DNA of 64,000 bases from Candidatus Saccharimonadota bacterium (GTDB lineage Bacteria > Patescibacteriota > Saccharimonadia > Saccharimonadales > JACDBH01), in assembly GCA_028289135.1 (NCBI GenBank), contig JAQGGW010000001.1, positions 76,018-140,017 on the forward strand, given 5' to 3'. Below are positions 21,110-55,737 of this stretch, one piece after another; position 1 is the stretch's first letter; each line of letters opens with the position of its first letter. A program made the translations under genes and the position numbers. The notes under the pieces were generated by a model. The model was not told the origin of the DNA. It saw only the letters and a program-made list of their open reading frames with translations, and did no database searches.

Positions 21110-21694
21110 ATGGATGAAGAGACGGCGAAAGCTAGCGAGCCGGCAGTAGCTGTAAAAAAACCAGCGCGCACGCGCAAAAAAGCACATGGCAAACTGCCGG
21201 TTATTTTGGCAAGTGTTTTTGGAACATTGCTTGTTTTGGGCGGAGGCTATGGAGCATGGGTGTTTTTACACCGGGTGGTGAGCCCCGTGCCAAAAGCCAT
21301 CCGCGCCAGCGTTAACTTCCCTGTCTACTACCCCGACCAAAAGAAGCTACCCGTGGGCTATACGCTGGATTTACATTCATTTAAAAACCCACACCCCAAT
21401 ACCTTGCTGTATAACGTAACGTACGGCAATGGCAAAAAGCTGGTGTTTGCATTGCAGGTAAAACCATCGGACGATGACATCCAGAGCTTTTATGCCAACC
21501 TAATTCCGCTTAGGAACAAAATGGATGTCCCGGCTGGGCACGCTGAAATTGGGGCCTATAACAACGGTGGCAAAATCGACACCCAGTCGGTAATTAGCCT
21601 GCCGACAGCAACTAATACGTGGATAATAATAACTGGTCCCGGTGACATTGACCAGGGCCAGTTAAAGCAGGTTTTGACGTCTATCCGCAGTTAG
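21110..21694 (+). CDS. single-pass membrane protein, paralog 1 of a three-member family
   Basis: 194 aa: basic tail (KKPARTRKKAHGK), one TM, then the ecto-domain opening PKAIRASVNFPVYYP. Same architecture as 39869-40480 and 56589-57464. Confidence 0.7.
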   Translation: MDEETAKASEPAVAVKKPARTRKKAHGKLPVILASVFGTLLVLGGGYGAWVFLHRVVSPVPKAIRASVNFPVYYPDQKKLPVGYTLDLHSFKNPHPNTLLYNVTYGNGKKLVFALQVKPSDDDIQSFYANLIPLRNKMDVPAGHAEIGAYNNGGKIDTQSVISLPTATNTWIIITGPGDIDQGQLKQVLTSIRS

Positions 21695-22770
21695 ATGGCA
21701 ATATGTCCAATACAGGTGTTACCATTGTCATTGCTGTTCGTTAGATCTGGGCAAATAACATTGTCCCAGGTTGCTCCTGTGAAGTTTGCTCCAGTGTAAG
21801 TGCTTGTTGCCTCAAGGTAATAACCTTGTGCAAAATGTGCGTTAGTGAAGTTAGTATTTGTGAAATTGTCATTATCAAATCCACTGCCGCCAATAAAGCT
21901 CTGACCGCTAAGATTAGCCCCAGATAAATTACTATCAATTATTGAAAATCCTACACCCGTTCCAGTGCCAGATAGGTTTGCATTGGAAAAGTTACTCCCA
22001 GCCTGAATATTAGTACTTTCAAATTTACTACCGCTTAAATCTCGTCCGCTTAAATTCTGACCATTGAATTGTGCTAAGTAAAAATTTAGCCCAGTAAGAT
22101 TAACACTATTAAGGTTAGTATTACCAAAAATGGCAGAAATCGTCTGGCCTGAACCAAACGTAATACCCGAAAGATTTGCATTTGTTAGATCAACATTACT
22201 TAAATTTAAACTAGATAAATTCCTTCCTGAGAGATCTACTGAGTTTAAATTGGAGTTAGTAAAGTTAGCATTGCTCAAGGTTGAGCCTAGAAAAATTGCG
22301 GCTTTCAGATTAGCCCCAGTGAAATTCGAATTGCTCAGGTTAGAGCTAGTAAAGTTAGTCTTTTCGGCATTTGAGCCAGTCATATTAGCACTACTTAGGT
22401 TTGAGCTAGTGAAATTGGTATTTTTTAAGACAGACCGAGAAAAATCTGTACCTGTAAAGTTAGTGTTGGATAGATCCCAGTAAACCATATTGGAATCGGA
22501 TAAATCTGCTCCGGCGGGGTTTGTGCGTAGGGGGGTTTTGCCTCCTTGGCTCCAATTTAGGGCAGTTTCGCTGCCTGAGCAGGTGGCTGAAGCGGAGTCT
22601 ATTATTTTAAGTGTCCCGGTGCTGTTTTTGTAGCAGCTATGGATTGTGCCGCTGGCATCCGGTATTGCTGCCAATACAACAGCCGAGACCAAGCCGCCCA
22701 CCAGCGAAGCAATTGCCAGCCCCAAAGCATAGCTTCCCTTGCGTGTTAAGAACTTAACAAGCTTTTTCAT
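21691..22770 (-). CDS. secreted pentapeptide-repeat protein
   Basis: An N-terminal signal/anchor is followed by ~45 consecutive A(D/N)LxX-type pentapeptides (NLSSANMTGSNAEKTNFTSSNLSNSNFTGANL...), with Cys pairs at both ends. The ATG at 22770 is preceded by AAAGGGG. Confidence 0.85.
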   Translation of the reverse strand: MKKLVKFLTRKGSYALGLAIASLVGGLVSAVVLAAIPDASGTIHSCYKNSTGTLKIIDSASATCSGSETALNWSQGGKTPLRTNPAGADLSDSNMVYWDLSNTNFTGTDFSRSVLKNTNFTSSNLSSANMTGSNAEKTNFTSSNLSNSNFTGANLKAAIFLGSTLSNANFTNSNLNSVDLSGRNLSSLNLSNVDLTNANLSGITFGSGQTISAIFGNTNLNSVNLTGLNFYLAQFNGQNLSGRDLSGSKFESTNIQAGSNFSNANLSGTGTGVGFSIIDSNLSGANLSGQSFIGGSGFDNDNFTNTNFTNAHFAQGYYLEATSTYTGANFTGATWDNVICPDLTNSNDNGNTCIGHIAI

Positions 22771-22868
22771 ACACACCCCTTTATTATGTTTACGTTCTCA
22801 GGATAGGCTTATTGGGCTTAAAAAGACATAAGATTTTTATCACATTATTAGTAAGGTAAGTCTACCGA

Positions 22869-25800
22869 TTAATTTCCGGTTACGATATACTGTTCCATCG
22901 TTATATTATTACCGGCAGCACTTGCACCAAATGCAGGAAATAGATAGAGATTTTTTGCAGAAGTAGAGACAACTGTTGTAGCTGTGGTAGTGTACATACT
23001 CACACTGGTACTTGTGGTTGTGGTTGTAGCATTACTAAAATAGCCCTGCCCCATCATGGTTGTAGTACTGTAGCAGATTATATAGTAATCGAGATGCCAA
23101 CCTAGGTTAACTGCTGCAGCACCACTCGAGACCGGCACCGAGGCAATCCCGATAGGACTAGCACCATCGTTTGTACGTGTGGTACCATCCGTACCGTAGT
23201 AGACACCCATTCCCACCGTCACAGCAGCTGTAGTGTTGTATACACCACTTGCAAATATATGAATTGTTTTACCTGGCTTACAGAAGTTTGCCGGAACTGG
23301 TGCAGTTCCAATCGATGCACAGGTCGCCAAACAGGTAGAGACGGATCCACTAGCAGCAGTATTTGAATACAATAACCCATTACAAGGCAACCAGGAGCCC
23401 GCAATACCACACATTGCCCTGTGGTCTGTGGAGCTATAGAACATACCTCCGTCTACTTCGGTACCAGCTGTAGCTCCAGTTGAACCATTCAAGAATGTTG
23501 CATCAGTGTCCCAGTCCAGTACGAGAGGTGTGGTATTTGCGTCTTGTACGCCAACGACGACGTTGCCGTTTAGGCTGTCGACTGTCAGTAGGTTGGTGGC
23601 GGCGGCGTTTTGGATCTTGAATTCTTCGGTGGAGTTGGAGGTGTTTTTGAACACTGTTGGCGAGGTGATGGTAGCATTAATGAAGAGGCTGCCAGCTGCA
23701 TATTCGGATGCGGTGGCTGCGGCTTCGAGCTGGACGCCGTCGATCCAGAACGTGTGGGCGGTAGCGGCTGTTTGGACAATGGCAATGTAGGCAGTAGCGC
23801 TTGGGGTTGTAACAGCAGTGGTAAACGAACAGACATAGCGGGTCCAACCGTTAAGGTTCACAACCTGAGGAGTTAAGCCACCGGTTGGTGTACAGTCAAT
23901 AAACGTCGTACCGCCATCAACCGAGTAGCGGCCCTTGATGTCAGTAAATGTACCGCTGCTAAGCTTGGCGTACCACGACAGCGTATAGGTGGTTGATATG
24001 GCAAGCTGGGTGGGTTGGACATTGCCGGTAATAAATCTAGCTCCGGAGTTTGCAGTTGCACTTGTAACTTCTCCTAAGGAAGCTGTTCCAAGCCAGGCCT
24101 GGCTTGTTTCACGAGTCGGGAGGGCTCCACCCAGCTCTGGCCCCCAGCCTAGTAAGTTCACTTCAAAACCAGGGTTGGTAATAATGTTACTATCAGTTGT
24201 ATCAATATTAAAGATATTAGTACCGGCGGCGTTTTGAACAGTTAGAGCGTTGGCTGAATTAAAGCTATTTTGAAGCGTTACAGGACTTGTAATAGTGCCA
24301 CCTAAGGATATTTTACCCTCACGGTAGTTAGCGTCACTGTTAGCATCGGTCTGCAAAGTTACTCCGTCAATATAGAAAGTGTGGATATTTGCATCAGTTT
24401 GCTTAACATAAAAGTACGGTGTTCCGGATGGTGCCAGAGTAAAGAAGCTACAAGTAACACGTACCCACTGTCCTGCCCTTAACGTTGATGTGTTTATATT
24501 ACAGTTTCCATCAGTAACACCGTCCTTCGCATAACCTACCGCAAGAGTTGACATACTCTTGCTTGTGCTGTCGAGCATGATGTATAAGCTCGCCGTCCAT
24601 CTTCCTGAAGGAAGCGAAACGTTATAGATGGCGCCCTGGTCAATGGTTGCTTGGGTAGTAACTTTGAGCGAGCTGCTGCCGCTGTAGCCTTTGTTTGGCT
24701 CACGGGCGAAGGTTGTAGGCGTTGTGCCCTTGGCTGCCCAGCCGGTGGTGTCTGTTTCGATGCTGGCGTTGGTGATGACGTTGTTGAGGTTGCCAACGCT
24801 CGTGTCCACAGATAAGACCGTGCTGGTTGAGCTGCTTCCGACCCTAAACGCGTCGGTTGTGCTGCTGGAGATGTTTAGGGCGCCGCCAATGGATAGGTCG
24901 CTGGTAAAGCTTCCTGAATATGCTTGGACGGTATTGTTGACGATAACTGATCCTGCGCTATTCATGGCATACTGGTAAATTGCAGCCCCGGTGTAATCTG
25001 TTGTGTAAAGGTAACTCCCCTGGATGTAAATATTGTCCGTAGAACTACCATTTGTAGTTGTGGCGGTAAGGACTGGCAAAGAAGGCGTGCTGATGTCGAT
25101 GGTGTAGATTTTGTTATCAGCACCAGCGACGTAAGCATAACGTCCTTTTACAAAAATGCTGTACGGCATACCCCAGTGAGCGCGTGAAAGATAGTCGTTA
25201 TTTGTGATGTAGAGAGTTCCGACCTGGACCGGTGTGGCTGTTGGATTGCTGACGTCTAATATGCGAACTATGCCACCGTCTGTCGCGTAGACATACTTGC
25301 CCTGAACATAGAGGCTTAGCATGTTAACCTGTGTGCTCGTTGACACAATAACAGGACTAAACGGATTGGAAATGTCTACAATCTTTAGAGTTGAAGCATT
25401 CGAAGCACCACCGCCTGCAACATAGACATACTTGCCCTTTAGTACAATGGAGTAGCTTGCTGACATTGCCGTTGTACTTAGCGATACCGGCGTTACGGGG
25501 TTTGTAATGTCGAATATCTGCATGCCAGTTGAGCCCACAACGTAGGCGTAATTACCCTGCACCCAAACACTCGCATTGGTCTGGTAGGTTGTTTCGGCCG
25601 ATCCATTTTTTAATACTGGTGCAAAAGGATTTGAGATATCGTAGATAAATATCTTGGCGACAGTTTCATCAACAAGATAAGCATAGTTTCCAGAGATATA
25701 TATCCCATTAAGGCTACTTGCTAACGGCACTGCTGTTGTACTTGCGACTGACGAAGTGGACATATTAGTGATCTGGAAGCTTGTGCCATTATTGATCGTG

Positions 25801-28800
25801 TAAGCATAATCACCAACGACAACAAGCCCCCACGGAGTCGCAGCTGTGGTGACACTAGAAAGCTGTGTTAGTGTTGGCGCGCCGCCAACAGAAACTACGC
25901 CGTTGAGAGTGTCGGCAGTTAACAAGCTCGTGCCAGCGGCATTCTGAACTTGAAGTGCGTTGGTTGAGTCGGACTTATTACGAATGAGTGTAGAGGTATT
26001 TATAATGCCATTGAAGCTTATGCTGCTGTCTTGGTATGCGACAGGGTTAACGATGTTGGCATTGTTTGTAAGCTGCACATCGTCAATCCACCAGTTGCGG
26101 GTTACAAGGTCGGTTTGCACAATGTATATAAATGCGCCAGCGGCAGGAGCGGTGTTGTCAGTTGTAATAGTACAGCTAAAGCGGCTCCAGTTTGTCGTGA
26201 CTGTGCCCAAAGATGTTTTACAGTCAGAAACTGTAACGCCGTCACGTTCGTACCCAGCGGTAAAGGTACTGAATGCTGCAGACGCCTTGGCCCAGAAACT
26301 AAGCGTGTAGCTACTGTCTATATTAAGCTGTGTTGGGTTTGTGTTTGCGGTTATGTAGCTTGTTCCGTCGCGCCCACCGGGAGTTAATACGGTCATCTTT
26401 AGGCTGTTTGCGCCGTTATAACCAGTTGTAGTATCAAGTGTCATATTGACTGGAGCGCCAGAACCAGTCTTCGTCCATGGAGCCGCAACGCCTGCTGTTT
26501 CAAAGCCTGTGTTCCCTATTTGAGCCTGGGTGATGGCCGTACCGGCTTCAAGCTGGAGGCTGTCAATATAGAGACTTCGGCTCGTGGTGTCGAGCTGCTT
26601 GATTGCAAGATATGCGGTACTAGCAGGCGCTGTGCCGTCGGTATTAATTGTGCAGCTTACGCGCGTCCAACCACCTGAAGTGATGATGGTTGTGGCATTA
26701 TATACAGCACAATCAGTTTGTGTCGCTGTCGTACCATCCCGGGCATAAGCAATGGTCAGTGGATTTGGTAAACTCATGCTGCCAGAGGCGAGACGTGCAT
26801 AGAAGCTGAACGTGTATGTGGTACTGGTTGCAAGCACTGCACCGATATTGTAGCGAGCACTGTTATTAGCTGCTGTGCCTGTGGTAAAGAGTAAGCTGTT
26901 GGTAGCAGCATACGCCTGCGCACTTGTTTCCTGTACGCTTGCATTTGTTCCGTTTGCCGTCCAGCCCGTTAATGCTCCTTCAAAACTAGTATTGCTGGTA
27001 AGTGTGTTTAAGGTGGTTGTGTCTACATTAAGTACAGCCGAACCGATGGAGTTTTGAATCTGGAAAGCCGCACTTGAGTTTATTATATTTTTTAGCGCAA
27101 GCCCGCTGTTGGACAAATCAAACAAGCTACCCGTACCTGATGTGTTCATAACGCGCAGCCGGTTGTTAGCAACTGTCGTCCCAGAAAGAACAGAGAAAGT
27201 GGCAGAATTTGTATTTATGACCGCCAAATCCAAGTCATTATCGTTATTAAAATCACCTGTAATGATAGCTAACGGCTGCGATCCTGTTGTGTAATCAGTT
27301 TTAGAGGTTGCTACTGGTGGGCTGGCACCGAATTGGCCAGATCCTAAGCCTGAGTTAGTGAAGATGGATACAGTATTAGAAGATGTATTCGTGACAGCTA
27401 TATCCAAGGTGCCGTCTTTGTTGAAGTCGCCGGCGATGATGCCGCGTGGGCTAGTACCAGTGCTATAATCAACTCTTGTTGTCGCAGTAATTGGGTTTGC
27501 GCCGGATCCAAACTGTCCAGTACCCACGGCTGAATTTATAAAGATAGACATGGTAATGGAGTTATTATTAGTAGCGGCAATATCCAGCTTACCGTCTTTG
27601 TTGAAGTCGCCGGTGACTATGCCATATTGAATACTGCTCGTTGTATAGTTTGCTAGAGTCGTGGCAGCTGGTGGGCTGGCACCGAACTGGCCAGTGCCTA
27701 GGCCGGAGTTAATCAAAACACTTATAAACAATGAGCCGGCATTGGCTATGGCAAGATCAAGCTTACCGTCGCCGTTAAAGTCGCCTGTAGAAATAGCTGT
27801 CGGGTTGGTACCAACGGTGTAGCTCACTAGAGTTGTGAATGTAGGTGGGGAGGTACCAAACTGAGTCGTACCTAACCCGGAGTTAAGAATAATTGATATG
27901 GTAGCTGATGAGAAGTTAGTTATGGCAAGATCAAGCTTACCGTCGCCGTTAAAGTCGCCTGTAGTGATTCCCTGTGGCGAGCTGCCAACTGAATTGAAAT
28001 CTGTTCTTGCACCGAAAGTTCCATTCCCTATACCCATAAAGATAGATACAACGTTATCCGAATTAGCAACAGCAAGATCAAGGTTGCCGTCTTTGTTGAA
28101 GTCGCCGCTTGTAATGCCAACCGGGAAATTCGCAGTATAATAAGCTACTTTTGGACCAAATGTTCCATTGCCCAAACCTAGAGAAACATTAGTGTTAAAA
28201 GTAATTGATTCGGTAGAAGCAATGTCTAAAATTCCGTCTTTGTTGAAGTCGCCGGTGGTAATGGCCTGCGGTGTGCTGCCTGCGCTATAGTCTACTTTTG
28301 GATCAAACAAGTTTGCAGAGCTACCGCCTATAGTAGTGTTACCTTGGCCGTCAACACGCAGCAACTGGCTTGTACTCTGCCCGTATATACTAAGCGCGTC
28401 GTTAACACTATTATTATAAATACTGAGGCTTGGGTTAGTAGTTTGAGTAACACCAAGTTCTGCATTGATCATTACTGTGAGACTTGGACCGCTTGAACCA
28501 GTCGATGATAGGTCAAGATTTCCATCGTTATTGTAGTCCGCAGCCGATATTCCACCGAGTCCCAAAGCAGCAGTATAATCAATTTTCGCACTAAATGTGC
28601 CATTACTGTTACCCAAAAGAACAGAGACAATATTTCCCCCTCCTGCACTAGTTACCATAAGATCAAGATTTCCGTCTTTATTGATATCACCGGTAACGAT
28701 TTTTACTGGTGTACTGGCTGTTGCGTAGTCTACTTTTGTACCAAATGCGCCATTGCCTAGTCCTAAAAGAACTGACACTGTATTTGAACCCTGGTTCACT

Positions 28801-31514: not shown

Positions 31515-31536
31515 TTTTTTCCTTTAGATTTTTGTT

Positions 31537-31848: not shown

Positions 31849-31879
31849 GGCTATATGTAAAAGCTCATCATGATCTGCT

Positions 31880-39868: not shown

Positions 39869-40480
39869 ATGGTTAACTATATGGCGGGAGAACAACAAAA
39901 AGTTGAATACATGACCGATTCTGACGGCGTAAAGTACCAGGTAGTCCGTACGCCACTAGACGATACGAAGGCAAAACGCACGCGTAAAGCGCCAAGGCTA
40001 GCAGGTCGAAAAAGTCTGTGGCCGTTGGCTGCAATCATAATTCTTCTAAGCTTCACTATCATAGGCCTGCTAGTTTATAAATATAAGACAAATCAAAAAC
40101 GCGCTAATAATGTGCCCGTTGCCATTCGGCATGATGTCGATTTCCCAATATATATACCGCTAGCTTCTGGAATTACCATAGATAAAGATTCGTTCGACTA
40201 TTCGGTCAGTGTGCTACAGTTTAATGCCAAAAATTCCGGAACACCGCTGCATTTTGCGGAACAGAAAAAGACCCCGGAATTTGACATTAGTAAATTTGCA
40301 GGTGGTATCCAAATTTCAGGGGTGAAGCAGCTTACACTCCCTCAGGGCCAAGCGGTAATTGGAACAATACAGGACAAAACTATAGCTTTTATGGATACTG
40401 GCAACACAATTATCACCGTAACCGGCAGCCAGTCCGAATCTTTTGCCGAGACTATCTTTCGATCTTTGCAAAAGCTGTAG
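39869..40480 (+). CDS. single-pass membrane protein, paralog 2 of the three-member family
   Basis: 203 aa: basic tail (KAKRTRKAPRLAGRK), TM, then the ecto-domain opening VPVAIRHDVDFPIYIP. It is the only plus-strand gene inside the giant-gene cluster. Confidence 0.7.
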   Translation: MVNYMAGEQQKVEYMTDSDGVKYQVVRTPLDDTKAKRTRKAPRLAGRKSLWPLAAIIILLSFTIIGLLVYKYKTNQKRANNVPVAIRHDVDFPIYIPLASGITIDKDSFDYSVSVLQFNAKNSGTPLHFAEQKKTPEFDISKFAGGIQISGVKQLTLPQGQAVIGTIQDKTIAFMDTGNTIITVTGSQSESFAETIFRSLQKL

Positions 40481-45331: not shown

Positions 45332-45357
45332 TTTGATTTTCCTTTGATTGTTTGTGT

Positions 45358-45379
45358 TTATTTCTTTTTGTAGAAATAA
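45358..45379 (-). promoter_or_regulatory. conserved 5'-UTR hairpin upstream of the P2 SD
   Basis: mRNA sense: UUAUUUCU-ACAAAA-AGAAAUAA. Compensatory changes relative to P3 (UUGUUUCU/AGAAACAA). Confidence 0.55.
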
Positions 45380-45431
45380 TTTTTGTCTTAATCCCAAGAA
45401 CTTTTAATATTTGTTTAGGATTAACCCCTCT

Positions 45432-45461: not shown

Positions 45462-45525
45462 CCCTTAAAGACTACTTTTCTGTACTCGCCAAAAAGCTCT
45501 AATATTGTGAATGTTGTTAAAACAT

Positions 45526-45661: not shown

Positions 45662-45688
45662 GCACCCTACCTACATTTCTACAAAATT

Positions 45689-46150
45689 TTATTGGATAAG
45701 GATATAGTCGAAGTTATATGTTGTGCTGGCAGAAGGCGCGTCCAAGAAGTGAATAACAAAACCATCCGTGGTGTTAGTTACAAAATAGCGGGCCGTGGCG
45801 CTGTTGGCGTCTTTAGCTGTCAGTGCAATCCGCGGTGCAGTGGTATATGTCTTGTTAAATTTAACTGTTATCTGCTCACCCGCTGCCAGTGTATAGGCTG
45901 GAGTGTACAAGGTTGCAGCAGCAGTCGTACCAGATGTGTAGCTAACGGTACCAGCACTGTCGTTACCAACAATTGCAAAGCTGCTGTCTTTGCCTGTCAC
46001 GGTGGTGCTGGCTCCCAAGACAGCCGTCGGTGCATTGCCAGAAGTAATAATCCTCGCAACCGTAAGCTGCTGTAATACTGTGTCGCCCTTCACTGTCAGC
46101 CCGCCAAGTGTCGCATTGCCGCCAATTAGTCCAAAGTGATCAAAATCCAC
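45689..46150 (-). CDS. 153-aa protein with H-type-lectin-like C-terminal half, overlapping the end of P3
   Basis: GTG start at 46150, a 25-nt overlap with the P3 3' end, no clear SD. The pattern VKFNKTYTTAPRIALTAKDANSATARYFVTNTTDGFVIHF resembles the H-type lectin beta-sandwich. Confidence 0.55.
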   Translation of the reverse strand: MDFDHFGLIGGNATLGGLTVKGDTVLQQLTVARIITSGNAPTAVLGASTTVTGKDSSFAIVGNDSAGTVSYTSGTTAAATLYTPAYTLAAGEQITVKFNKTYTTAPRIALTAKDANSATARYFVTNTTDGFVIHFLDAPSASTTYNFDYILIQ

Positions 46151-49100
46151 ATCCGATTGTTAGCATCTGTTTTGGCTGTTGACTTGCCCAATATCGAACC
46201 AGGCTGCGGGCTCTGGACCGTTATGACTGACCCAGAGCTTGATGACACCACCAAGCTGCCCGGCTTGATTAGCGGAATGGTGTTTGTGACGGATACCTGC
46301 ACCGCTCCGCCAACCGCGACTTCTATCTCATCACCCTTATGGATAGCTTGGGTAACGGCTACACCAATAATGCGTGTGTCGTCGTCCTGGGTGCTCACGA
46401 GCACTCCGCCGTCGTTATTTTCGTCCAGGATCACCACCTTTCCAGGCTCAATCGGCTCGCTGGCAATAAATTTACGGATGGTGGCTGCCCGGGTGTTTAC
46501 AGGAGCCACGACCTTTATATCCCCGCCAAATTCAGCGTTGCCCGAAACCTTAAGAGTTACAATGCGTGCTTCGTTATTCACGACCAGTGTGTCGATAGTT
46601 GCAAGACCGCTGGTGTTGAGGTCAATGAAGCTGCCGTTTATGGTCATACCCTGTGCTATGCCGCTGGTTTGGACGTTGTAGAAGCTTGGGTTAATAAACA
46701 CGGTTACCGAGCCAGTGCCATCGCCGCTGAAGCTGCCCATACTCATACCCACAATCCGGCCGTTACTGATTGCTTTTACACCCACTCCAGGCTGCGTCGG
46801 TGAAATTGTAATTGGATCACCAGCCACAATCGGACCATTTTCGGCACTGACTTTAACAGGAACGCGTCCAGCTAGAGCCACCGGAACTGCACGGGCACCG
46901 TCGATGGTGGCGTCACTCTGTGAAAGCCTAAGTGCGGGATTGGTAGAGTAAACACCAACAATAGCTTTTGCACTGGCAGCATCACCCTTTTGAACAAATT
47001 TCTCTTCACTAGGGCTAATGCTAACGATGTCACCTGCCGCCAATGTATCATCGCGGGTTGGGTAGTCTTCGGCAAGGTCATAGGAGCCGGATGTTGTATT
47101 GATGTTGCTGCTAAACAAGAAGCTGCCGGCGCTGCTGCGGTTAGAATCGGCCTGGGTATTGCCAACGTAGCTTATTGCAGCCGCAGGGCTGTTGGAGGTA
47201 TCGGTCGCAAACTGTAGAGCAAAGGAATTCTGTACGGTCTTGGTATATGTATACACTGCGCCTGTTGTACCTTCTTCTGTGCCAATATATAAGGAGTTGC
47301 CATAGGCTATCAAAGTGTCGACCTGATCAACAGCTGTTTGGGAACCAAAGGTTCCCCGAGCTGCAGTATATGCTTTGACGTATGGTTGCCCACCCGCGCC
47401 ACCACCAGTTATATATTCGTAGACGGCACCGGCATCACCAGCCACTGTCTTTGTGGCCACGTACATGCGTCCATTATAGACCTGGATAGCCGTAATGGCA
47501 TCAATATCTGTCGCGTCATTTACGGAATCAACACGACCTCTGATTGAGGAAGTTGTTCCAAAAGGACTTGCACCTGCAGCGCCTGTTGAACCCTGCATAA
47601 CATAAACTTCTGCCAGGTTTGTGGCGCCAGTACCAACCCAGAGCCAACCATTCCAGACCTGCATAGTCGTGATGTCCGGGATGGCCGTAATACCCGCCTG
47701 GAGCTGTCCGGGAGTCGTATTCCATAGCGTCATAACAAGGGTTCCACTTGATGAGTCAAGGCGGTAGATGCGGGCTGTGGTTGAACCAGTTATCGTACCC
47801 CACCAGAGATAGCCACCATAAACTACTAGTGGTCCACCATCGATGTCCGCGGTAGCCTCGGCTAGGCCTTTACCCAGCGTAGTGTTCAACCGTGTCCAAG
47901 TAGTAGAGCCGTCGTATCGGTAAATTCCCGCATTGTCAGTACCCCTCGTTACCAGGTAAAACTTGGTACCATAGACTGCCATACTCGAGACGCCTTCTAC
48001 GCTGGCATCCGAACCAAAGGTACCGCGCGTCGCCAACTGAAGCGTCCAAGTCGTTCCATCGTACGCATATACTGCACCCGTTGTTGTGCCAGTTTGCGTA
48101 CCAGCATAGAGCTTACCGTTATAGACACTAAGAACACTGGCATCAATGTTTGCAGTGTCGCCTGAAATAATCTTGCCGCTTGTGGAATCAGTAACCTTGC
48201 TCCAAGTCTTTCCATCACCGCGGTAAATGGCGCTGCCGTCTGTCTTTTTTGTAGAAATATATAACTTGCCATTATATACGGCTGAACTGAAAGCTCCTGC
48301 AACGCTTGTATCAGACCCAAATGTACCGGCAGTTCCAACTAGAGTTACTGCGGCTGGTGAAACATCCGCCTGGCCGCCAACAACAAGGTTACCGTTGTTA
48401 GTCTGTGTAGTATTTACTGTTAGCCCATTGTTGCTTACGCTGAACAAAGAGGCCGTCCCTAGTGTATTTAATACCGATAAACGCTTGTTTGACAAAGAAG
48501 TGTTAGATAATACAGAAATACTGCTGCCTAGCAAATTGGCTGATATTACATCCAAATCACCGTCACCATCAAGATCAATTATTGCGACGTCCTGAGTTCT
48601 CGTTCCAGTGGCGTAGTCGGTATTTGCACCAAATGTACCCGTACTAGTACCAAGTAACACCGATACGGTGTTAGAGCTATCGTTTGCAGTAATAACGTCT
48701 AGATTACCATCTTTATCCAGGTCCCCAATCCTAAAGCTATCAATAAACGCTGAGTTTGCAACCGTATAGTTTACCTCCGCGGCAAAACTTGACCCGGTGT
48801 TAATTAGCACGCCAATTTGGTTTGTGTTGTTTGCAATAACCAAGTCTAACTTACCATCTTTGTTTAAATCAGCACTTTGTACATATGTTGGCTGCGTACC
48901 TACGGTGTAGTCTGTTTTACTGGCCGCGGCAGGAGGGCTAGCGCCGAACTGGCCAGAACCTGCGCCGGTATTTAGATAAACTGAGACAACCGTGCCGCCC
49001 GCATTTGTAATTGCCATGTCAAGCTTACCGTCAGCATTAAAGTCACCGGTTGTGATGCCTTCTGGGTTGGCTCCAGTTGTATAGTCAACTTGAGTCGTAG

Positions 49101-52100
49101 GGGTAGTAGTGGCGCTAAACTGACCGGTACCAAGCCCGCTATTTATTAGAACTGACACTACTGCGCCTGAAGAATATTGCGGCACGGCTAGGTCAACTTT
49201 GCCGTCGCCGTTAAAATCGCCAGCCGCAAGATAGATATAGCTACCCGACCCCGAAATTGTATAGGATCCTGTTGCAAACGTACCAGTACCATTATTTATA
49301 AGTACTGTCACAGTAACGGTGCCGCAAGTAGCAGCTGCATCTAAGTAACCATCGCGGTTAAAGTCGGCTACTACCACACTCTTTGCATTTCCTCCGCCAC
49401 ACACGTTGGTATCACTTTCATTACCATAACCACCGATTCCGTTGCCGAAAAGCAGTCCAACATAACCGTTATTCATTGCTACGATAATATCCTGAATACC
49501 ATCCTTGTTAAAGTCACCTGCAGCAACACTATTTGCCTGGCTCATAACTGGGGAGTCCGTCTTTGCGTCAAACAGATTCGCGGTATTACCGCCAATTGTG
49601 GTATTGCCCTGTCCATCAACACGGACAAGCTGCTTGGCTCCCTGTCCGGAAATACTTAAGGAATCGTTGATACTGTTATTAAAAATATTTAGCGTAGGAC
49701 TGGAAGTAGGTGCAAATCCTAACTCGGCGTTCAGTAACACGGATATTGTGTTACCTCCATTGTTTGTACTTGCAAGATCAATGTTGCCATCATTATTGAA
49801 ATCAGCCGCTATACCAAACTGCGGAGCCGTTCCAGATGAAGTACCTTTTGTATAGTCAACCTTGCTGGCAAAAACGCCTGAACCCGTATTCAAATATGTT
49901 GAGAGCGTGCTCGTATCCATGTTTGTCACTGCCATATCGAGTAAACCATCTTTGTTGAAATCTCCAACGACTACACCTTTTGGATTTGTACCTGTTGCAT
50001 AGTCGACTTTTGTAGCAAATGCTACACCGGTGGTATTGAGTAAGATCGACACGGTTGCTGATCCATAATTTACAGCTGCAATATCGGGTTTACCGTCCTT
50101 GTTGAAATCTCCCACCGCTACTGCCAATGGAGTTGTGCCAACTGTGCCTGTCGTGCTTACGCTAACGGCCGGTGGGCTTGCGCCAAATAGACCTGCGCCA
50201 GAACTAGTGTTAAAGAGGATAGAAACCGTAGTTGCTGCGGAGTTGGAAGTTACGAGATCGACTTTACCATCACTGTTAAAATCTGCAGCTGCAATAGATT
50301 TAGGGGTACTACCGGCAGAATAATCTACTCTAACAGGGTTTGCCGTAGGAGCGCCCGCGCCGAACTGTCCGGAGCCTAAACCAGAGTTAAGGAAAATGGA
50401 AACATTTGAAGTCGTCTGTGCACTTGCCACTGCAATATCTAACTTACCGTCATTATTAAGGTCAGTTGCAACTATGCCAAATGGCAAAGCGACAGTTGTA
50501 TAGTCAACTTTTGTGGTGGCGGTTGGAGCACTAGCACCAAATTGAGCACTCCCTAAGGCCGAGTTAATAAAGATAGAGAAAGTGGCACTGCCGCTATTAA
50601 CCACTGCAAAATCAAGTTTGCCGTCATTATTGAAGTCGCCAGTTACAATGCCAGTTGGGCTTGAGCCCGTAGTGTAGTCAACTTTCGCTGCAAATGTTCC
50701 GTTTACTGCACCCATGAATATCGAAACAGTATTTGATGAGAAGTTAGATACCACCATATCGGAATATCCGTCTTTGTTGAAATCTCCTACTGCCGCATAA
50801 CCAGGAGCTGATCCTGTCGTGTAGTCAGCTTTTGACTTGAAAAGCCCAATGCTCGCCGTTGAGCCAACGCTAAGTGAGTTAGAGGTGGTATCTACATTTA
50901 AGACATTGCTACCCGAGCTATTTTGTACCAATAATGAAGAGGTTGAGTCGGCTGTATTCTGGATTGTTACGCCTACAGCGTTTATATTAAGCGTGTTACT
51001 GCTTTGGACACGCCCATCAGAATATACTGTGCTCCCTGCCCCTGTTACAATGCCGCCGGTAAAGTAGCCCTGGAAGAAGCGGTTGTTAAGGGTTGTGTAA
51101 TCTGTGCTGGTCGCGCCAATGCTCTGGGCAGTATATTTAGTAACTGTCGCGCTAGCGAGGTAGCTAACAGCTGGGCTAACCGTCAATGTCGTCGTTCCAC
51201 CACCGCTAACGATGCGCGTATAGTAATCTTGGCCAGAGGTGTTGTCGATGAAAATAATATCGTTGTTAGCAAAGCTGCCTGCTGCGGTCAGTATGACAGT
51301 AGTCGTATTAGTCGCTGGTGTCGCGCTCGTCGTCCCAGTAGTAGCGGTAGACGCGCCGGTGGCAATGATGTCAGTCGCGACCGTTAATTTATTGTTTGTT
51401 GAGTCTACGTTTAGTAGTGATGTGCCACTCGAGTTTTGAATCTGGAAAGCACTAACTGAGTTGGCATCACTTTGGAACAGGTTGCTGCCATGCACAGTCA
51501 AGCCGCCCTGGTAGTTATTGTTATTAGATACAGGTATATAGTCTTGCTTACCGGACGTCATAACATTATTAGTAACACTGATTGTACCTATCGCTACAAA
51601 CATGCCGTTGCCGTAGACGACACCGTGCCAGCTATCATCAGAGGCAGAGATACGGGAAGTCCAGTTGATGCCGTCTGGAGATGTCATAACACGGTTGCCC
51701 GTTCCTGTACTCGTTACGGCTACGAAGAGACCATTTCCGTAGGTAACGCTGTTCCAGCCATTGGTCGGTGTTGTCCGGCTAGTCCATGTTATACCGTCTG
51801 GGGATGTAGCCACATCAGACGTGGTAGGCCCTAACGCAACTGCTACAAATAGGCCGTTGCCATAGGTAATGCTGTCCCAGTAGTCTACCGACGGCAACGT
51901 ACGTGCCGTCCAGGTAATACCATCCGGGGAACTCATGGCAGCGGTATTGAAGTAGGATACTGCTACAAAGACACCGTTGCCGTAGGTAACTGAGTACCAG
52001 CTGACGTTAGCCGTAGAGACGCGGAGAGTCCAGTTTATACCGTCTGGGCTGGTCATCACGCGGTTGCCAGCATTGGCATCACAAGTGGTACCGCCAACTC

Positions 52101-55100
52101 CGCACGCAACTGCGACAAACAGGCCGTTGCCATAGGTAACGGACATCCAGTCATTATCGGCGGCAGAGGTGCGGATAGTCCAAGTTATACCGTCTGGGCT
52201 GGTCATCACGCGGTTGCCCGTTCCATCATTAGAGACGGCAACGAATAGACCATTGCCGTAGACAACGCTGTTCCATTTGTTATCGGCGGCAGAAGTTCGA
52301 GCTGTCCAGTTGATGCCATCCGGGCTGGTCATGACGCGGTTGCCGGTACCGCTACTTGCAACCGCAACATAGAGGCCATTACCGTAAGTAATGCTGTTCC
52401 AGATTAAGTTCGCAGCACCAGTACGTGAAGTCCATGAGGTACCCTTAGATATAATATCGCCAACCACTTCGAGCCTTGAATTACTGGTGTCGACACTCAA
52501 AACGTTTGTCCCAGCAGAGTTCTGAACCTGGAACGCCGTTGATGAATTTAGATCACTGGTAAATGTTGAACTACCATTGACAGTAAGACCACCTTGGTAC
52601 TTATTATTATTTGATACAGCTATATAATCCTGCTTTCCTGATGTCATGGCATGGTTACCTGTTCCATCAACAGATACCGATACAAAAGTGCCGTTACCGT
52701 AAGCAACAGAAGACCATGCGTTATTAACAGTATTAGACCGGATTGTCCAAGTAATGCCGTCTGGGCTGGTCATGACACGCGCACCAGATATGCCAAATTC
52801 TGAGATAGCGACGAATAAGCCATTGCCGTAGGTTATACTTTCCCAGTCGTTGGTATTAGGAGCAGTCCGAGTAGTCCAGTTTATGCCGTCTGGGCTGGTC
52901 ATAACTGAGTTAGTAATAGATCCGTCTGAAGCAACAGTTACAAATAAGCCGTTACCGTAGGTTATGCCGTCCCACATATTATTAGCGGAGCTCGTTCGGC
53001 TTGTCCAGGTGATGCCGTCTGGGCTCGTCATGATGCGGTTGCCAGCTGTGTTATTACAGAATGTACTACTAATTCCACATGCAGCTGCTACAAACAAACC
53101 ATTAGCATAGGTAATACCATTCCAGGCGTTATCTGCGGCAGAGGTACGGATTGTCCAGTTGACGCCATCCGGGGAGGTCATGACGCGGTTGCCGGTACCG
53201 CTGTAAGCTACAGCTACAAAAAGGCCGTTACCATAAGTAACGCTACTCCAACTGTTATCTGCGGCAGAGGTACGGATTGTCCAGATTATGCCATCTGGGG
53301 AGGTCATGACGCGGTTGCCGGTACCCGTGCTAGCAACTGCAACGAAGATGCCATTACCATATGCAACACTACTCCAACTGTTATCTGCGGCAGAGGTGCG
53401 GACTGTCCAGGAAGTACCCTTGCTTACAATGTCGCCAACAACTTCTAGGCGGGAGTTAAGAACATCGAGAGTTAAAGCGCTCCCCTTTGAACCTTGGATC
53501 TGGAAAGCGGTAGTTGAATCTGTTACAGCACTATCTGCCAGGTAGGCAGTCATGACGTTATTGCCTACTCCACCCGACCCTACCGCTATAAACACACCGT
53601 TGCCATAGCCAACTCCGTTCCAAGAGTTATCGACTGGATCAGTGCGGGTCGTCCAAGTTGTTCCATCTGGGCTGGTCATGACACGCGTTGACGTACCGGT
53701 AGTAGATACTGCCACATAAAGGCCGCTACCATAAGTGACAGACCTCCAGTTATTTGCCGAAGCGGCAGTCCGGCTAGTCCAAGTAGTGCCGTCTGGGCTG
53801 GTCATGACAGACCCGGCAGCTGACACTGCTACGTAAAGACTGTTACCATAAGTGACAGAAGACCAGGTACTACTGGAGGCACTTGTCCTGGTCGTCCAAG
53901 TAGTGCCGTCTGGGCTGGTCATGATTTCGTTGCCGGTGCCGGCAGTACTGGACACTGCTACGAATAAACCATTGCCGTAAGTGACTGACTTCCAGCTGGC
54001 ACTTACTGAGCTAGTCCGGGTAGTCCAAGTAGTGCCGTCTGGGCTGGTCATGATTTCGTTGCCGGTGCCGGCAGTTTGTGAGACGGCTACAAACACGTTA
54101 TTGCCATATGTTACCGAGTTCCAGCTGGCACTTAAAGAGCTGGTACGCGCAGTCCAGGTAATGCCGTCTGGGCTGGTCATAACTTCGTTGCCGGTACCGG
54201 CAGTACTGGACACTGCCACGAACAAACCATTGCCGTAGGTCACACTATTCCAAACAGCGCTAGTTGAACTGGTACGCATTGTCCAGGTGATGCCGTCTGG
54301 GCTGGTCATGACCTCGTTGCCAGTACCAGAAGTAGATGATACAGCTACATAAATGCCATTACCGTAAGCCACCGAGTTCCAAGTATCATCGCCGGCACTA
54401 GCACGTATAGTCCAAGCTTTGCTGTCAATATAGCTGTCGCCAATAGTAGTAACTTTTAGGTTAGTAGTACCTACTTTTAGAACCGGTACTCCGGCAGCAT
54501 TTTGAACCTGGAAAGCAGAAGTGGAATCGACTGAGTTTTGGAAGGAAGCCGAGCCGTTTGTGCCACTAAGAGTCAGTATGGTTTGAAGCGTGTTAAGGCT
54601 CGACCCAGTTGTGCCGGCTTTAGCAGTTTGGAATACCAAGTTGCCGCCAACTCCCGTACCCGTGCCCTGGCCACCTGCAAGAGTAAATGCGGCGCCAGCG
54701 ATATTTGAACCCAACCCCCCCGTTGACTGAAGGGTATACCCAACAGGAGTCACGCTAGTCAACGCATTACCGATAGTTAGGTTACCGCCTACTTGCAGTG
54801 CACCCGCGTTAACCGTTGTAAGACCGCTGCGCCCAATGGTTATTGCTGCCGCGTTGGCGATTCCGATCGAAATACTACCCTTTGTCCCAGTTGCCGTTCC
54901 AGCGTCAATGCCAACATTCCCTGAATTGCTTGTAGTCCCAGTCGCGTTACCGGACTGGACTGTTACATCATTCGAGTTGGTTGAAGCCGCATAAGTATTC
55001 CCTGAGTTAACGTTGTTTGCCATAAATGCGAGAGGAACAGCTGTGGTTTGGATACGCGGTGTCATTTCCGTGTCCCAAGTTGGGCTAGCTGTTTGGGTAG

Positions 55101-55737
55101 ATCCGCCAACCCGCATAGTTAGATAGAGCTGCTGAGACCAGTCGATGGTGGATGGGAAGGCTACACCACCATTGTTAACGTCGCCTAGGACTACGCTAAA
55201 ATAACCATTAGTTACCCTAACGCGATAGTCATTACCTGATCCAATTGGAGCGGCACCGTCTGTATCATAGCGGACTTCTGTCCATTGGCAGTTTGCGTCA
55301 CCCGTACATGAACCCTGGGAGGAACCAGTGGAGGATGGATCATTATAAAGTTTAAACTCAATGTTGTAGTAGCCGTCCGCTACCAAAGAGCCAGTATTGC
55401 TTAGCAGCCGGCCTTGGAAGTTTAGGGTTTTGCCGGTGATGGCTAGGGCGCTAGCGGGCTGTGGGTTAGTTTTCAGAACACTAAATAGCACGATGGTTGG
55501 ACCCAGCAGAAGGGCTACTACGAGAATAGCCTTTTTGCTCGCCAGCGTGCTAATTATTGATCTGAAAATTCTTACCAAATCAAAAACCCCCCGTGGATCA
55601 TCATTATTAGGGGTGCGCTTAACAGACTGCTGATTTAAATCAGCAGGGCTGTGTTTAACAGATGACTGAATTGGCTCAGTATCTGATGGCGTCCTTAATA
55701 ATGACGTTCCACGGGGGGTCCAGCCCGGTTGAATCAT
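46126..55737 (-). CDS. giant secreted surface protein P3 (3203 aa), mosaic of repeat cassettes
   Basis: It has the conserved N-module. There are three Asp-box-like propellers, with 17 canonical blades (WxSVxYGNGxFVAV...VMTSPDGxxWTxRT) plus 3 degenerate closing blades. It also has 7+7 FG-GAP blades with the same linker as P1, a Kelch-like VYNGKLY region, and a C-terminal DLAEDYP...GDIVSI segment. AAAGGAAG SD. Confidence 0.85.
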   Translation of the reverse strand: MIQPGWTPRGTSLLRTPSDTEPIQSSVKHSPADLNQQSVKRTPNNDDPRGVFDLVRIFRSIISTLASKKAILVVALLLGPTIVLFSVLKTNPQPASALAITGKTLNFQGRLLSNTGSLVADGYYNIEFKLYNDPSSTGSSQGSCTGDANCQWTEVRYDTDGAAPIGSGNDYRVRVTNGYFSVVLGDVNNGGVAFPSTIDWSQQLYLTMRVGGSTQTASPTWDTEMTPRIQTTAVPLAFMANNVNSGNTYAASTNSNDVTVQSGNATGTTSNSGNVGIDAGTATGTKGSISIGIANAAAITIGRSGLTTVNAGALQVGGNLTIGNALTSVTPVGYTLQSTGGLGSNIAGAAFTLAGGQGTGTGVGGNLVFQTAKAGTTGSSLNTLQTILTLSGTNGSASFQNSVDSTSAFQVQNAAGVPVLKVGTTNLKVTTIGDSYIDSKAWTIRASAGDDTWNSVAYGNGIYVAVSSTSGTGNEVMTSPDGITWTMRTSSTSAVWNSVTYGNGLFVAVSSTAGTGNEVMTSPDGITWTARTSSLSASWNSVTYGNNVFVAVSQTAGTGNEIMTSPDGTTWTTRTSSVSASWKSVTYGNGLFVAVSSTAGTGNEIMTSPDGTTWTTRTSASSSTWSSVTYGNSLYVAVSAAGSVMTSPDGTTWTSRTAASANNWRSVTYGSGLYVAVSTTGTSTRVMTSPDGTTWTTRTDPVDNSWNGVGYGNGVFIAVGSGGVGNNVMTAYLADSAVTDSTTAFQIQGSKGSALTLDVLNSRLEVVGDIVSKGTSWTVRTSAADNSWSSVAYGNGIFVAVASTGTGNRVMTSPDGIIWTIRTSAADNSWSSVTYGNGLFVAVAYSGTGNRVMTSPDGVNWTIRTSAADNAWNGITYANGLFVAAACGISSTFCNNTAGNRIMTSPDGITWTSRTSSANNMWDGITYGNGLFVTVASDGSITNSVMTSPDGINWTTRTAPNTNDWESITYGNGLFVAISEFGISGARVMTSPDGITWTIRSNTVNNAWSSVAYGNGTFVSVSVDGTGNHAMTSGKQDYIAVSNNNKYQGGLTVNGSSTFTSDLNSSTAFQVQNSAGTNVLSVDTSNSRLEVVGDIISKGTSWTSRTGAANLIWNSITYGNGLYVAVASSGTGNRVMTSPDGINWTARTSAADNKWNSVVYGNGLFVAVSNDGTGNRVMTSPDGITWTIRTSAADNDWMSVTYGNGLFVAVACGVGGTTCDANAGNRVMTSPDGINWTLRVSTANVSWYSVTYGNGVFVAVSYFNTAAMSSPDGITWTARTLPSVDYWDSITYGNGLFVAVALGPTTSDVATSPDGITWTSRTTPTNGWNSVTYGNGLFVAVTSTGTGNRVMTSPDGINWTSRISASDDSWHGVVYGNGMFVAIGTISVTNNVMTSGKQDYIPVSNNNNYQGGLTVHGSNLFQSDANSVSAFQIQNSSGTSLLNVDSTNNKLTVATDIIATGASTATTGTTSATPATNTTTVILTAAGSFANNDIIFIDNTSGQDYYTRIVSGGGTTTLTVSPAVSYLASATVTKYTAQSIGATSTDYTTLNNRFFQGYFTGGIVTGAGSTVYSDGRVQSSNTLNINAVGVTIQNTADSTSSLLVQNSSGSNVLNVDTTSNSLSVGSTASIGLFKSKADYTTGSAPGYAAVGDFNKDGYSDMVVSNFSSNTVSIFMGAVNGTFAAKVDYTTGSSPTGIVTGDFNNDGKLDFAVVNSGSATFSIFINSALGSAQFGASAPTATTKVDYTTVALPFGIVATDLNNDGKLDIAVASAQTTSNVSIFLNSGLGSGQFGAGAPTANPVRVDYSAGSTPKSIAAADFNSDGKVDLVTSNSAATTVSILFNTSSGAGLFGASPPAVSVSTTGTVGTTPLAVAVGDFNKDGKPDIAAVNYGSATVSILLNTTGVAFATKVDYATGTNPKGVVVGDFNKDGLLDMAVTNMDTSTLSTYLNTGSGVFASKVDYTKGTSSGTAPQFGIAADFNNDGNIDLASTNNGGNTISVLLNAELGFAPTSSPTLNIFNNSINDSLSISGQGAKQLVRVDGQGNTTIGGNTANLFDAKTDSPVMSQANSVAAGDFNKDGIQDIIVAMNNGYVGLLFGNGIGGYGNESDTNVCGGGNAKSVVVADFNRDGYLDAAATCGTVTVTVLINNGTGTFATGSYTISGSGSYIYLAAGDFNGDGKVDLAVPQYSSGAVVSVLINSGLGTGQFSATTTPTTQVDYTTGANPEGITTGDFNADGKLDMAITNAGGTVVSVYLNTGAGSGQFGASPPAAASKTDYTVGTQPTYVQSADLNKDGKLDLVIANNTNQIGVLINTGSSFAAEVNYTVANSAFIDSFRIGDLDKDGNLDVITANDSSNTVSVLLGTSTGTFGANTDYATGTRTQDVAIIDLDGDGDLDVISANLLGSSISVLSNTSLSNKRLSVLNTLGTASLFSVSNNGLTVNTTQTNNGNLVVGGQADVSPAAVTLVGTAGTFGSDTSVAGAFSSAVYNGKLYISTKKTDGSAIYRGDGKTWSKVTDSTSGKIISGDTANIDASVLSVYNGKLYAGTQTGTTTGAVYAYDGTTWTLQLATRGTFGSDASVEGVSSMAVYGTKFYLVTRGTDNAGIYRYDGSTTWTRLNTTLGKGLAEATADIDGGPLVVYGGYLWWGTITGSTTARIYRLDSSSGTLVMTLWNTTPGQLQAGITAIPDITTMQVWNGWLWVGTGATNLAEVYVMQGSTGAAGASPFGTTSSIRGRVDSVNDATDIDAITAIQVYNGRMYVATKTVAGDAGAVYEYITGGGAGGQPYVKAYTAARGTFGSQTAVDQVDTLIAYGNSLYIGTEEGTTGAVYTYTKTVQNSFALQFATDTSNSPAAAISYVGNTQADSNRSSAGSFLFSSNINTTSGSYDLAEDYPTRDDTLAAGDIVSISPSEEKFVQKGDAASAKAIVGVYSTNPALRLSQSDATIDGARAVPVALAGRVPVKVSAENGPIVAGDPITISPTQPGVGVKAISNGRIVGMSMGSFSGDGTGSVTVFINPSFYNVQTSGIAQGMTINGSFIDLNTSGLATIDTLVVNNEARIVTLKVSGNAEFGGDIKVVAPVNTRAATIRKFIASEPIEPGKVVILDENNDGGVLVSTQDDDTRIIGVAVTQAIHKGDEIEVAVGGAVQVSVTNTIPLIKPGSLVVSSSSGSVITVQSPQPGSILGKSTAKTDANNRMWILITLD
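48470..50850 (-). repeat. coding repeat array: two sets of seven FG-GAP/VCBS-type blades in P3
   Basis: 14 xD(F/L)NxDGxxDxxx motifs, split 7+7 by ...VLLNAELG...RVDGQGNTTIGG..ANLFDAKTD. This is the same cassette as P1 27190-29500. Confidence 0.75.
51540..54420 (-). repeat. coding tandem repeats: Asp-box-like propeller blades of P3
   Basis: Neighbouring units are near-identical at the DNA level. For example, CCAAGTAGTGCCGTCTGGGCTGGTCATGATTTCGTTGCCGGTGCCGGCAGT occurs at 53896 and 54025 (129-nt period). Confidence 0.8.
55581..55721 (-). promoter_or_regulatory. large structured domain plus U tract inside the P3 coding region (+19..+157)
   Basis: 27-nt arms at 55693-55719 and 55586-55613 pair with 2 mismatches and 1 G.U. 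They enclose a perfect 20-nt palindrome, CTGCTGATTTAAATCAGCAG (55627-55646). UUUUUGAUUU follows in mRNA sense. Confidence 0.5.

Follow-up and report, generated by a model that had tools for sequence, protein, structure and literature searches.

A hypervariable island of giant secreted repeat-protein genes between rplU and parA in a Saccharibacterium genome

The contig JAQGGW010000001.1 (assembly GCA_028289135.1) was analyzed in a window of 64,000 nucleotides, to which all positions refer, and was found to carry an island of about 35 kb with genes for giant secreted repeat proteins between rplU and parA. The eight open reading frames (ORFs) on which the original prediction for this DNA was based were all recovered from the ORF list, seven of them on the minus strand, and with 46% GC a chance origin of ORFs this long is impossible. 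Unless a plus is given, the features described below lie on the minus strand. The remaining genes of the window are ordinary housekeeping genes (rpsB, tsf, frr, prfA, prmC, HtrA, LCP, lepB, parAB, rplU, and ileS). For the isoleucyl-tRNA synthetase (IleRS) encoded beside the cluster, the 80 best matches in the GTDB species genomes show 58-70% identity, and nearly all of them are labelled Saccharibacteria, Saccharimonadia or Patescibacteria. The giant protein P3 is identical to MDB5182331.1 (JWO47_115) at NCBI, a protein of a Candidatus Saccharibacteria metagenome-assembled genome which is encoded on a 183-kb contig and annotated as "hypothetical protein". Judged by these sequences the source is a Saccharibacterium (TM7), an ultrasmall bacterium. 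Cultivated Patescibacteria are described as obligate epibionts (PMC11623550), and together with the taxonomy this makes it reasonable that the original prediction considered an epibiont as the source.

Three of the giant proteins, P1, P2, and P3, start with a common N-terminal part. The protein P3 (46126-55737, 3203 amino acids) begins with a leader (55447-55737), an Ig-like N-domain (54988-55446) and a Gly/Thr/Ser stalk (54433-54987). These are followed by three arrays of SPDGxxW blades of about 43 residues each (51538-54432), 14 FG-GAP blades (48403-50820), repeats of the YNGKLY type (47098-48390), and a C-terminal region to which no domain could be assigned (46129-47097). P1 (22869-31514, 2881 amino acids) has its leader at 31275-31514 and its N-domain at 30810-31274, and continues with at least 12 FG-GAP blades (27180-29717), two CBM_4_9 domains (25935-27017), LVIVD repeats (24915-25877), a second CBM_4_9 pair (23715-24827), and a connector with a C-terminal module (22872-23666). 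P2 spans 40490-45397 with 1635 amino acids if started at TTG 45397, or 40490-45331 with 1613 amino acids if started at ATG 45331; the latter start is backed by the homologous protein P0019, whose alignment begins there. Its leader (45083-45331) and N-domain (44612-45082) precede about 1,100 residues rich in Gly, Thr, Ser, and Ala without a known domain (41213-44611), and the connector and C-terminal module in common with P1 (40493-41212). The connector of 60-70 residues ('...GTLLILDTKTGSGDPTGVNGGMYYNSNAGRFRCYENGAWADC') recurs in P1 and P2 and is present in seven full-length copies in a homologue of 3899 amino acids. The FG-GAP regions of P1 and P3 share 39% identity.

Over their approximately 300 N-terminal residues P1, P2, and P3 show an amino-acid identity of 54-59% and a nucleotide identity of 71-79%. 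Their sequences identify them as paralogues with a single N-terminal cassette as the common basis, and not as independent inventions. The cassette consists of a basic N-region, a hydrophobic core (KKAILVxALLL), an AxA-type site, a domain of about 150 residues and a stretch rich in Gly, Thr, Ser, and Asn. It defines a family, termed 'LNFQGRLL' here after the first of its conserved motifs (LNFQGRLL...DGxYN.EFKLY...LWTE...NGYFSV.LG...IDW...PR.kLTAVP), which are N-terminal and are followed by the Gly/Thr/Ser stalk; P1, P2, and P3 all align to it. No Pfam model matches the domain of about 150 residues. It was modelled as an Ig-like beta-sandwich with a predicted local distance difference test (pLDDT) score of about 90, and a Foldseek search of the cassette model against the PDB returned only generic Ig-like sandwiches, with no match better than E 0.02. 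The leaders of P1-P3 and of many homologues are unusually long: their basic N-region extends over 45-70 residues ahead of the hydrophobic core and often starts in the form M-x-x-P-G-R-D-x-R. Other members of the family have short classical signal peptides.

The size of the family was determined by an exhaustive profile search with the cassette against 1.84 billion representative proteins. At E<=1e-30 it matched 1,408 clusters, and with the threshold relaxed to E<=1e-10 and E<=1e-3 the number rose to 7,414 and 20,385, although the weakest matches may stem from the low-complexity stalk. The search returned P3 itself and other giants with E-values down to 1e-115; the best 150 clusters mostly consist of proteins of 1,000-6,400 amino acids, always with the match at the N-terminus. 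A word-indexed search had yielded 18 fragmentary matches only, understating the family, and the exhaustive search corrected this count. Few matches carry source names, and these are labelled Saccharibacteria or "hypothetical". Behind the cassette, the 18 giants that were scanned carry different heads: NosD/beta-helix in four, Kelch and Peptidase_S74 in three each, and FG-GAP and CBM_4_9 in one each.

Domain families were assigned to whole proteins and segments by Pfam searches with curated cut-offs and by NCBIfam searches. FG-GAP/FG-GAP_3 (PF13517, PF01839) reached 277 bits in P3 and 268 bits in P1 at a cut-off of 26.9 (E 1e-81 to 1e-84), and calcium-type motifs of the form D[FLIV][ND]xDGxxD were counted 14 times in P3 and 12 times in P1. 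P1 furthermore matches LVIVD (PF08309; 93.8 bits, E 4e-27) and, in four stretches, CBM_4_9 (PF02018; 120.9 bits, E 6e-35). In the protein of 1593 amino acids, Kelch_1 scored 234 bits and a KLHDC2-type domain 268 bits (E 6e-80), well above the cut-offs, so that the Kelch-type label given in the original prediction holds; 16 hhhhGG motifs and 16 DNA repeat copies were found, with gaps that fit about 18 blades, and the number is given here as approximately 16-18. Pentapeptide repeats (PF00805) were detected in six stretches of a smaller protein (111 bits, E 1.5e-32), which is encoded at 21691-22776 with an N-terminal hydrophobic segment and comprises 361 amino acids from GTG 22776; ATG 22770 lies two codons inside. 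NCBIfam added only a domain-level, XAC2610-related match in the FG-GAP region and a leader-peptide match that was spurious.

The FG-GAP, Kelch, LVIVD, CBM-like and pentapeptide types of the original prediction are thus upheld above the Pfam cut-offs, whereas its Asp-box, Fn3 and beta-helix labels could not be confirmed. The canonical Asp-box SxDxGxTW is absent from every cluster protein in a pattern search, and there is no BNR match in Pfam. A motif shorter by one residue, S-x-[DN]-G-x-x-W, is present in 17 copies in the three arrays of P3 and in only three copies in the protein of 1040 amino acids, the one that had received the label. The C-termini of the 1040- and 1593-residue proteins, checked for Fn3, gave no Fn3 hidden Markov model match in Pfam; in the AlphaFold model of the former, which is poor overall, residues ~890-1015 form strands resembling a beta-sandwich (pLDDT 70-89). 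Evidence for a beta-helix was not found in P2. For P2 and the 1040-residue protein, neither Pfam nor NCBIfam nor the PDB sequences (nothing at E<=1) gave a match.

The 1040-residue protein (JWO47_111; 36658-39780) and the Kelch protein (1593 amino acids; 31880-36661) form a pair. Their genes are translationally coupled, as originally predicted, since the TGA stop of the first overlaps the ATG of the second (ATGA), and the two proteins have a C-terminal beta-sandwich module in common (55% identity). The former is predicted to be secreted by a classical signal peptide ending VEA|AV and contains an all-beta region which a low-confidence model shows as propeller-like (~37681-39603), followed by two beta-sandwich repeats (36736-37488). 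The latter carries an N-terminal hydrophobic segment without an AxA site (36467-36661), a candidate signal anchor, the Kelch blades (32507-35614) and a beta-sandwich domain (31937-32344). The AlphaFold model of the 1040-residue protein, calculated with seven sequences, is all-beta with a pLDDT of 52. Its Foldseek matches are exclusively beta-propellers (propeller lectins, glycoside hydrolases, polysaccharide lyases, and sialidases) at a root mean square deviation (rmsd) of 11-30 A, and the modelled protein can be called no more than propeller-like. Among its homologues, P0165 and P0166, one carries Hint/intein-type domains and the other LamG and sialidase-lectin domains, which indicates that the propeller-like module is combined elsewhere with other effector or binding modules. 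The coupling and the common module suggest a two-component unit with one membrane-anchored partner: the two proteins probably act together, with the Kelch protein as the foremost candidate for the anchored one.

A small ORF of 153 amino acids (45689-46150) begins with GTG, lacks a signal peptide and overlaps the stop of P3 (46126) by 25 nt in another frame. It had been taken for a lectin-like gene. The H_lectin family (PF09458) scores only 17.7 bits at a cut-off of 24 (E 0.004), and the homologues of the ORF are the last ~150 residues of giant proteins, which does not fit an independent secreted lectin. In the locus L028 the corresponding segment is fused to an ORF of 2310 amino acids. In L024 and in P0019, the closest relative of P3 with 3395 amino acids, it comes after a bona fide Peptidase_S74 domain, that is, an intramolecular chaperone as known from phage tail fibres. 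All six frames of the window lack S74 sequence, which suggests a deletion or frameshift. Most simply, the ORF would be the remnant or frame-shifted tail of a lost C-terminal module consisting of S74 and a lectin-like part.

Exactly one hydrophobic segment, located at the N-terminus, was found in every cluster protein except the 153-residue ORF. In P1-P3 this leader is read as a cleavable Sec signal and not as a membrane anchor because the AxA-type pattern is conserved directly before TLNFQGRLL in 20 of 21 aligned family members, and because a homologue in a complete 903-kb Saccharibacteria chromosome carries a short classical signal peptide ('...TASA|AP') ahead of the same domain; N-terminal transmembrane anchoring of P1-P3 was downgraded on these grounds. 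Direct inspection of the C-termini revealed neither a hydrophobic segment nor LPXTG in any cluster protein. Pfam and NCBIfam gave no match to S-layer-homology (SLH) domains, to other S-layer lattice or anchoring domains or to autotransporter translocator domains, neither for whole proteins nor for segments. This agrees with the original prediction, which had left the mode of anchoring unclear for that reason. It can be narrowed: P1-P3 and the 1040-residue protein most likely have cleaved signal peptides, and the Kelch protein alone looks like a protein with an N-terminal signal anchor. The giants also differ from the housekeeping proteins of the window in composition. Glu and Lys are strongly reduced, to 1.0% and 2.4% from 8.0% and 7.6% in the housekeeping proteins, and Thr, Ser, and Gly reach 14.0%, 11.2%, and 11.2%, compared to 5.9%, 6.2%, and 6.6%. 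Extracellular beta-rich proteins are usually poor in charged residues, and the composition of the giants is typical of such proteins.

The position of the island was compared across 80 loci around ileS, taken with a flank of 10 kb. The backbone order ileS, rplU, parA, parB, lepB, LCP, HtrA, prmC, prfA is kept across Saccharibacteria, and the distance from ileS to parA varies widely: it amounts to 0.6-3.1 kb in 11 loci and to 4.5-9.6 kb in 20, and in some two dozen others the flank does not reach parA, compared to 37.7 kb in the window. An ORF of at least 700 amino acids directly follows ileS in 35 of the 80 loci. The cassette is present in 16, mostly directly downstream of ileS, and homologues of the Kelch protein were found in five, three of them directly after a giant gene. 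In the complete 903-kb chromosome, genes for proteins of more than 3017, 3899 (cassette and Kelch), and 931 amino acids lie ahead of parA-parB-lepB-LCP. Southlakia epibionticum ML1 shows the same backbone order with only 118 bp between L21 and ParA (SEML1_0180-0188; PMC10633639, Table S1).

The most informative relative is L163, a metagenomic contig of 386 kb, in which IleRS and L21 are 91 and 99% identical to those of the window. At the same site it encodes a P3-like protein with 70% identity to P3 over the cassette and 46% over the FG-GAP region, but unrelated elsewhere, directly followed by a P1-like gene (56% identity). Hence, the site changes much more rapidly than the regions beside it, with respect to its sequence as well as to the genes and domains present. 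The comparative test proposed with the original prediction, on the variability of the cluster between strains with different hosts, has turned out positive in that the locus is hypervariable between relatives, and the rplU-parA site is, in the sequences compared, a lineage-specific hypervariable island. The signs of a diversity-generating retroelement were not found: no reverse transcriptase was detected among the window ORFs scanned, nor a long near-identical repeat pair. A homologue search with the C-terminal third of P1 returned unspecific LVIVD proteins of numerous phyla, and its best contig, L164, was rejected as a same-site counterpart because it represents a different locus. A scan of metagenomes with ParA for contigs of the same species gave a best match of 59% identity and was uninformative. 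The literature was covered in part, and no paper describing the hot spot or the cassette was found in it.

The island is bordered on both sides by conserved backbone genes. Upstream, rplU (L21; 56164-56466) is followed by a terminator-like hairpin with a 10-bp stem (56115-56138; boundary region 56105-56466). Downstream lie parA (19021-19788) and then parB, lepB, and the LCP gene, as in all relatives examined. A promoter scan found sites no more often than in shuffled sequence. Within the variable interval, a Beta-lactamase2-family protein with an N-terminal membrane segment is encoded at 20012-21082, and a 44%-identical homologue stands directly after rplU in L044. Furthermore, two small single-pass membrane proteins are encoded on the plus strand, o194 (21110-21694, plus) and orf203 (39869-40480, plus; 203 amino acids, convergent with P2). 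They are paralogues with 33% identity, a basic N-terminus and the motif 'FP(L/V/I)YYP...GY'. Similar proteins recur beside giant genes in other loci, mostly in convergent orientation (L024, 19816-20586; L082, 26147-26698; L164, 14385-14954; all minus strand), and one neighbour in L164 has a weak match to DUF4245. These small proteins could be partners or assembly factors of the giants.

Beyond parAB, genes for envelope export and wall attachment adjoin the hot spot (12396-19788) in the same order in all Saccharibacteria examined, namely those for signal peptidase I (16974-17705, plus), an LCP-family ligase (15041-16867) and HtrA (12396-13673). On the other side, between ileS and rplU, an ORF on the opposite strand (56514-57464, plus) encodes a Gln/Pro/His-rich protein of 316 amino acids without a Pfam match, which is only 59% identical in L163, compared to 91% for the flanking IleRS and 99% for L21. 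Finally, an acidic protein of 1070 amino acids (5407-8619; 11% Glu), which has neither a Pfam domain nor an N-terminal hydrophobic segment, is unrelated to the cluster.

With moderate confidence, and judging from sequence data, it is assumed that the island encodes Sec-exported, modular all-beta binding proteins which probably serve attachment to a host or substrate and are under diversifying pressure. A constant export and proximal cassette would carry interchangeable heads, that is, arrays of propeller blades and CBM_4_9 domains, which are joined by short connectors. The proteins would extend outward from the cell and attach to glycans or proteins of a second surface, in all likelihood the envelope of a bacterial host, with the Kelch and 1040-residue proteins as a two-component unit of which one partner would be held in the membrane. 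Replacement of heads and of whole genes at the rplU-parA site would adapt the binding specificity; the rapid turnover there suggests diversifying selection on this specificity. For the apparatus for host interaction proposed in the original prediction this means that it is partly supported, by the affiliation to an epibiont group, the export signals, the binding-type domains, the low charge and the hypervariable locus, while three of its domain labels and the status of the 153-residue ORF had to be corrected.

Several observations weigh against this interpretation. Neither P2 nor most of the 1040-residue protein contains an identifiable domain, the model of the latter being of low confidence, and behind the probable cleavage site there is no recognized module for anchoring to the wall or membrane, so that cleavage would leave the retention at the cell unexplained. 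Neither the closest GTDB genomes (L002, L004, and L009) nor cultivated Southlakia possess the island, which is therefore not a universal requirement for an epibiotic lifestyle. The adhesin candidates that are essential in Southlakia are not homologues of this locus. Moreover, the hypervariability fits the evasion of phages or host defence as well as the adaptation of host range.

The last point leads to a protective or structural coat, similar to an S-layer or glycocalyx, whose variability would reflect escape from phages or from host surface sensors and not the choice of a host. The richness in Thr, Ser, and Gly, the low charge and the hypervariable locus are all compatible with it, and host Actinobacteria are known to detect Saccharibacteria by surface sensors, which one epibiont strain evades (PMC13622651). 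A coat nevertheless seems unlikely here, as the search for SLH and other S-layer anchoring or lattice domains was negative, the domains are strung on a stalk with CBMs and propellers being typical ligand binders, and the island is missing altogether from many relatives.

Glycan foraging in the manner of a cellulosome, with polysaccharides from the environment or the host being captured and possibly also cleaved by the CBMs and propellers, would make use of the four CBM_4_9 stretches in P1. It could also draw on the resemblance of the low-confidence 1040-residue model to propeller lectins, glycoside hydrolases, polysaccharide lyases and sialidases, and on the LamG and sialidase-lectin domains in its homologues. 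However, no catalytic family of glycoside hydrolases, polysaccharide lyases or carbohydrate esterases was detected in more than 10,000 residues of cluster protein, and fold matches at 11-30 A from a model with a pLDDT of 52 show only that the protein is propeller-like. Foraging is thus rated as quite improbable.

The S74 domains at the ends of close family members (P0019, three of the 18 scanned giants and L024) are typical of trimeric phage tail fibres, and with the 153-residue ORF as the remnant of such a module they could point to phage-derived fibre-like proteins or a mobile, phage-like element in place of chromosomal adhesins. Such an origin appears very improbable. No window protein matches a PHROG family, no S74 remains in any window frame, and relatives of the cassette are missing from 2.9 million viral contigs. 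In addition, no integrase, tRNA or phage structural gene was found among the window genes scanned, Rfam and tRNA scans of the window were empty, the GC content of the island is like that of its flanks, and the site is fixed in a housekeeping backbone.

As to the soundness of the assembly, an independent short-read assembly of the same strain (Logan SRR13312994, L001, 12 kb) matches exactly from ileS through residue 564 of P3 and breaks inside the SPDGxxW array. Most cassette homologues in the databases are contig-end fragments as well, and both observations indicate that cassette genes are systematically under-assembled. The DNA repeat copies are 60-87% identical, and no long near-identical pair exists in the window, the sole close one being a 49-nt FG-GAP repeat at 96%. 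Because the repeats have diverged and the independent assembly is exact over the common part, a collapse of identical repeats, the artefact the original prediction had warned of, is unlikely, with long reads alone able to prove the structure. The break in P3 and the out-of-frame 153-residue ORF notwithstanding, it is hardly credible that the genes are artefacts of the assembly or pseudogenes in decay: five ORFs of 1040-3203 amino acids run without interruption, the repeats have diverged, and complete or very long contigs carry intact homologous giant genes at this site.

The interpretation as attachment proteins can be extended, in a decidedly tentative way, to the proposal that the rplU-parA site and the 'LNFQGRLL' cassette constitute a previously undescribed cassette-exchange system which sets the range of attachable hosts, with a constant export and proximal module, swapped heads of the propeller, CBM or beta-helix type and, for some members, trimers matured by a phage-type S74 chaperone. 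Such a system would be the cellular counterpart of tail-fibre swapping in phages and of the fibre repertoire of Bdellovibrio. To our knowledge, host recognition by epibiotic Candidate Phyla Radiation (CPR) bacteria is largely open, and the only factors implicated by experiment are type IV pili and some small envelope proteins. The locus offers a defined and easily found chromosomal site, and by its recognizable cassette, candidate determinants of specificity can be spotted in Saccharibacteria genomes. Natural material for comparing heads with host range is provided by the empty site in Southlakia and by the different gene sets in the relative with 91% IleRS identity.

Among known systems, giant proteins of the CPR and predicted adhesins of Saccharibacteria are the nearest. 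For the CPR predator Vampirococcus lugosii giant membrane proteins were proposed to serve host attachment (PMC8080830), and transposon sequencing in S. epibionticum showed envelope proteins with VCBS, dockerin, Fn3 or glycan-binding domains to be essential for epibiotic growth (PMC10633639). Common features are the ultrasmall CPR organisms with reduced genomes, proteins of 1.4-4.2 thousand residues whose only hydrophobic segment is N-terminal, domains of the integrin/FG-GAP, fibronectin-like and lectin-like types, and the proposed role in recognizing and holding the host. In those cases individual proteins are concerned, whereas here a contiguous multi-gene island with three paralogues occupies a defined hot spot. 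In Southlakia the rplU-parA site is empty and here it is filled; orthology with SEML1_0890 (195 amino acids) and SEML1_0891 (565 amino acids, a lysozyme-like domain and a seven-bladed FG-GAP propeller) was rejected, as these are small proteins at another locus. The cluster as such is the kind of gene content expected for the CPR, and the cassette and the hot spot are possibly undescribed.

The mosaic adhesive trimer (MAT) fibres of Bdellovibrio bacteriovorus (PMC10769870) also belong to a bacterium living on bacteria and combine a common proximal part with diverse distal binding domains. However, MAT genes are dispersed and their much smaller proteins end in single tips, unlike the long propeller and CBM arrays found here. 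The likeness to these homotrimeric fibres is one of functional logic. Phage tail fibres and tailspikes with S74 resemble the family in the S74 domains of P0019, L024, and three of the 18 giants, in the Gly-rich stalks and in the connector motifs, but the window proteins have neither S74 nor PHROG matches nor homologues in viral contigs. Finally, P1, P3, and the 1593-residue protein lie far above the Pfam thresholds for FG-GAP/VCBS, Kelch, LVIVD, and CBM4/CBM9 and thereby join the bacterial proteins with these domains. From ordinary propeller-repeat proteins the cluster differs by its unusual scale, with 14 or more blades and further propeller arrays in one chain, by the N-terminal cassette of the Saccharibacteria type and by its chromosomal context.

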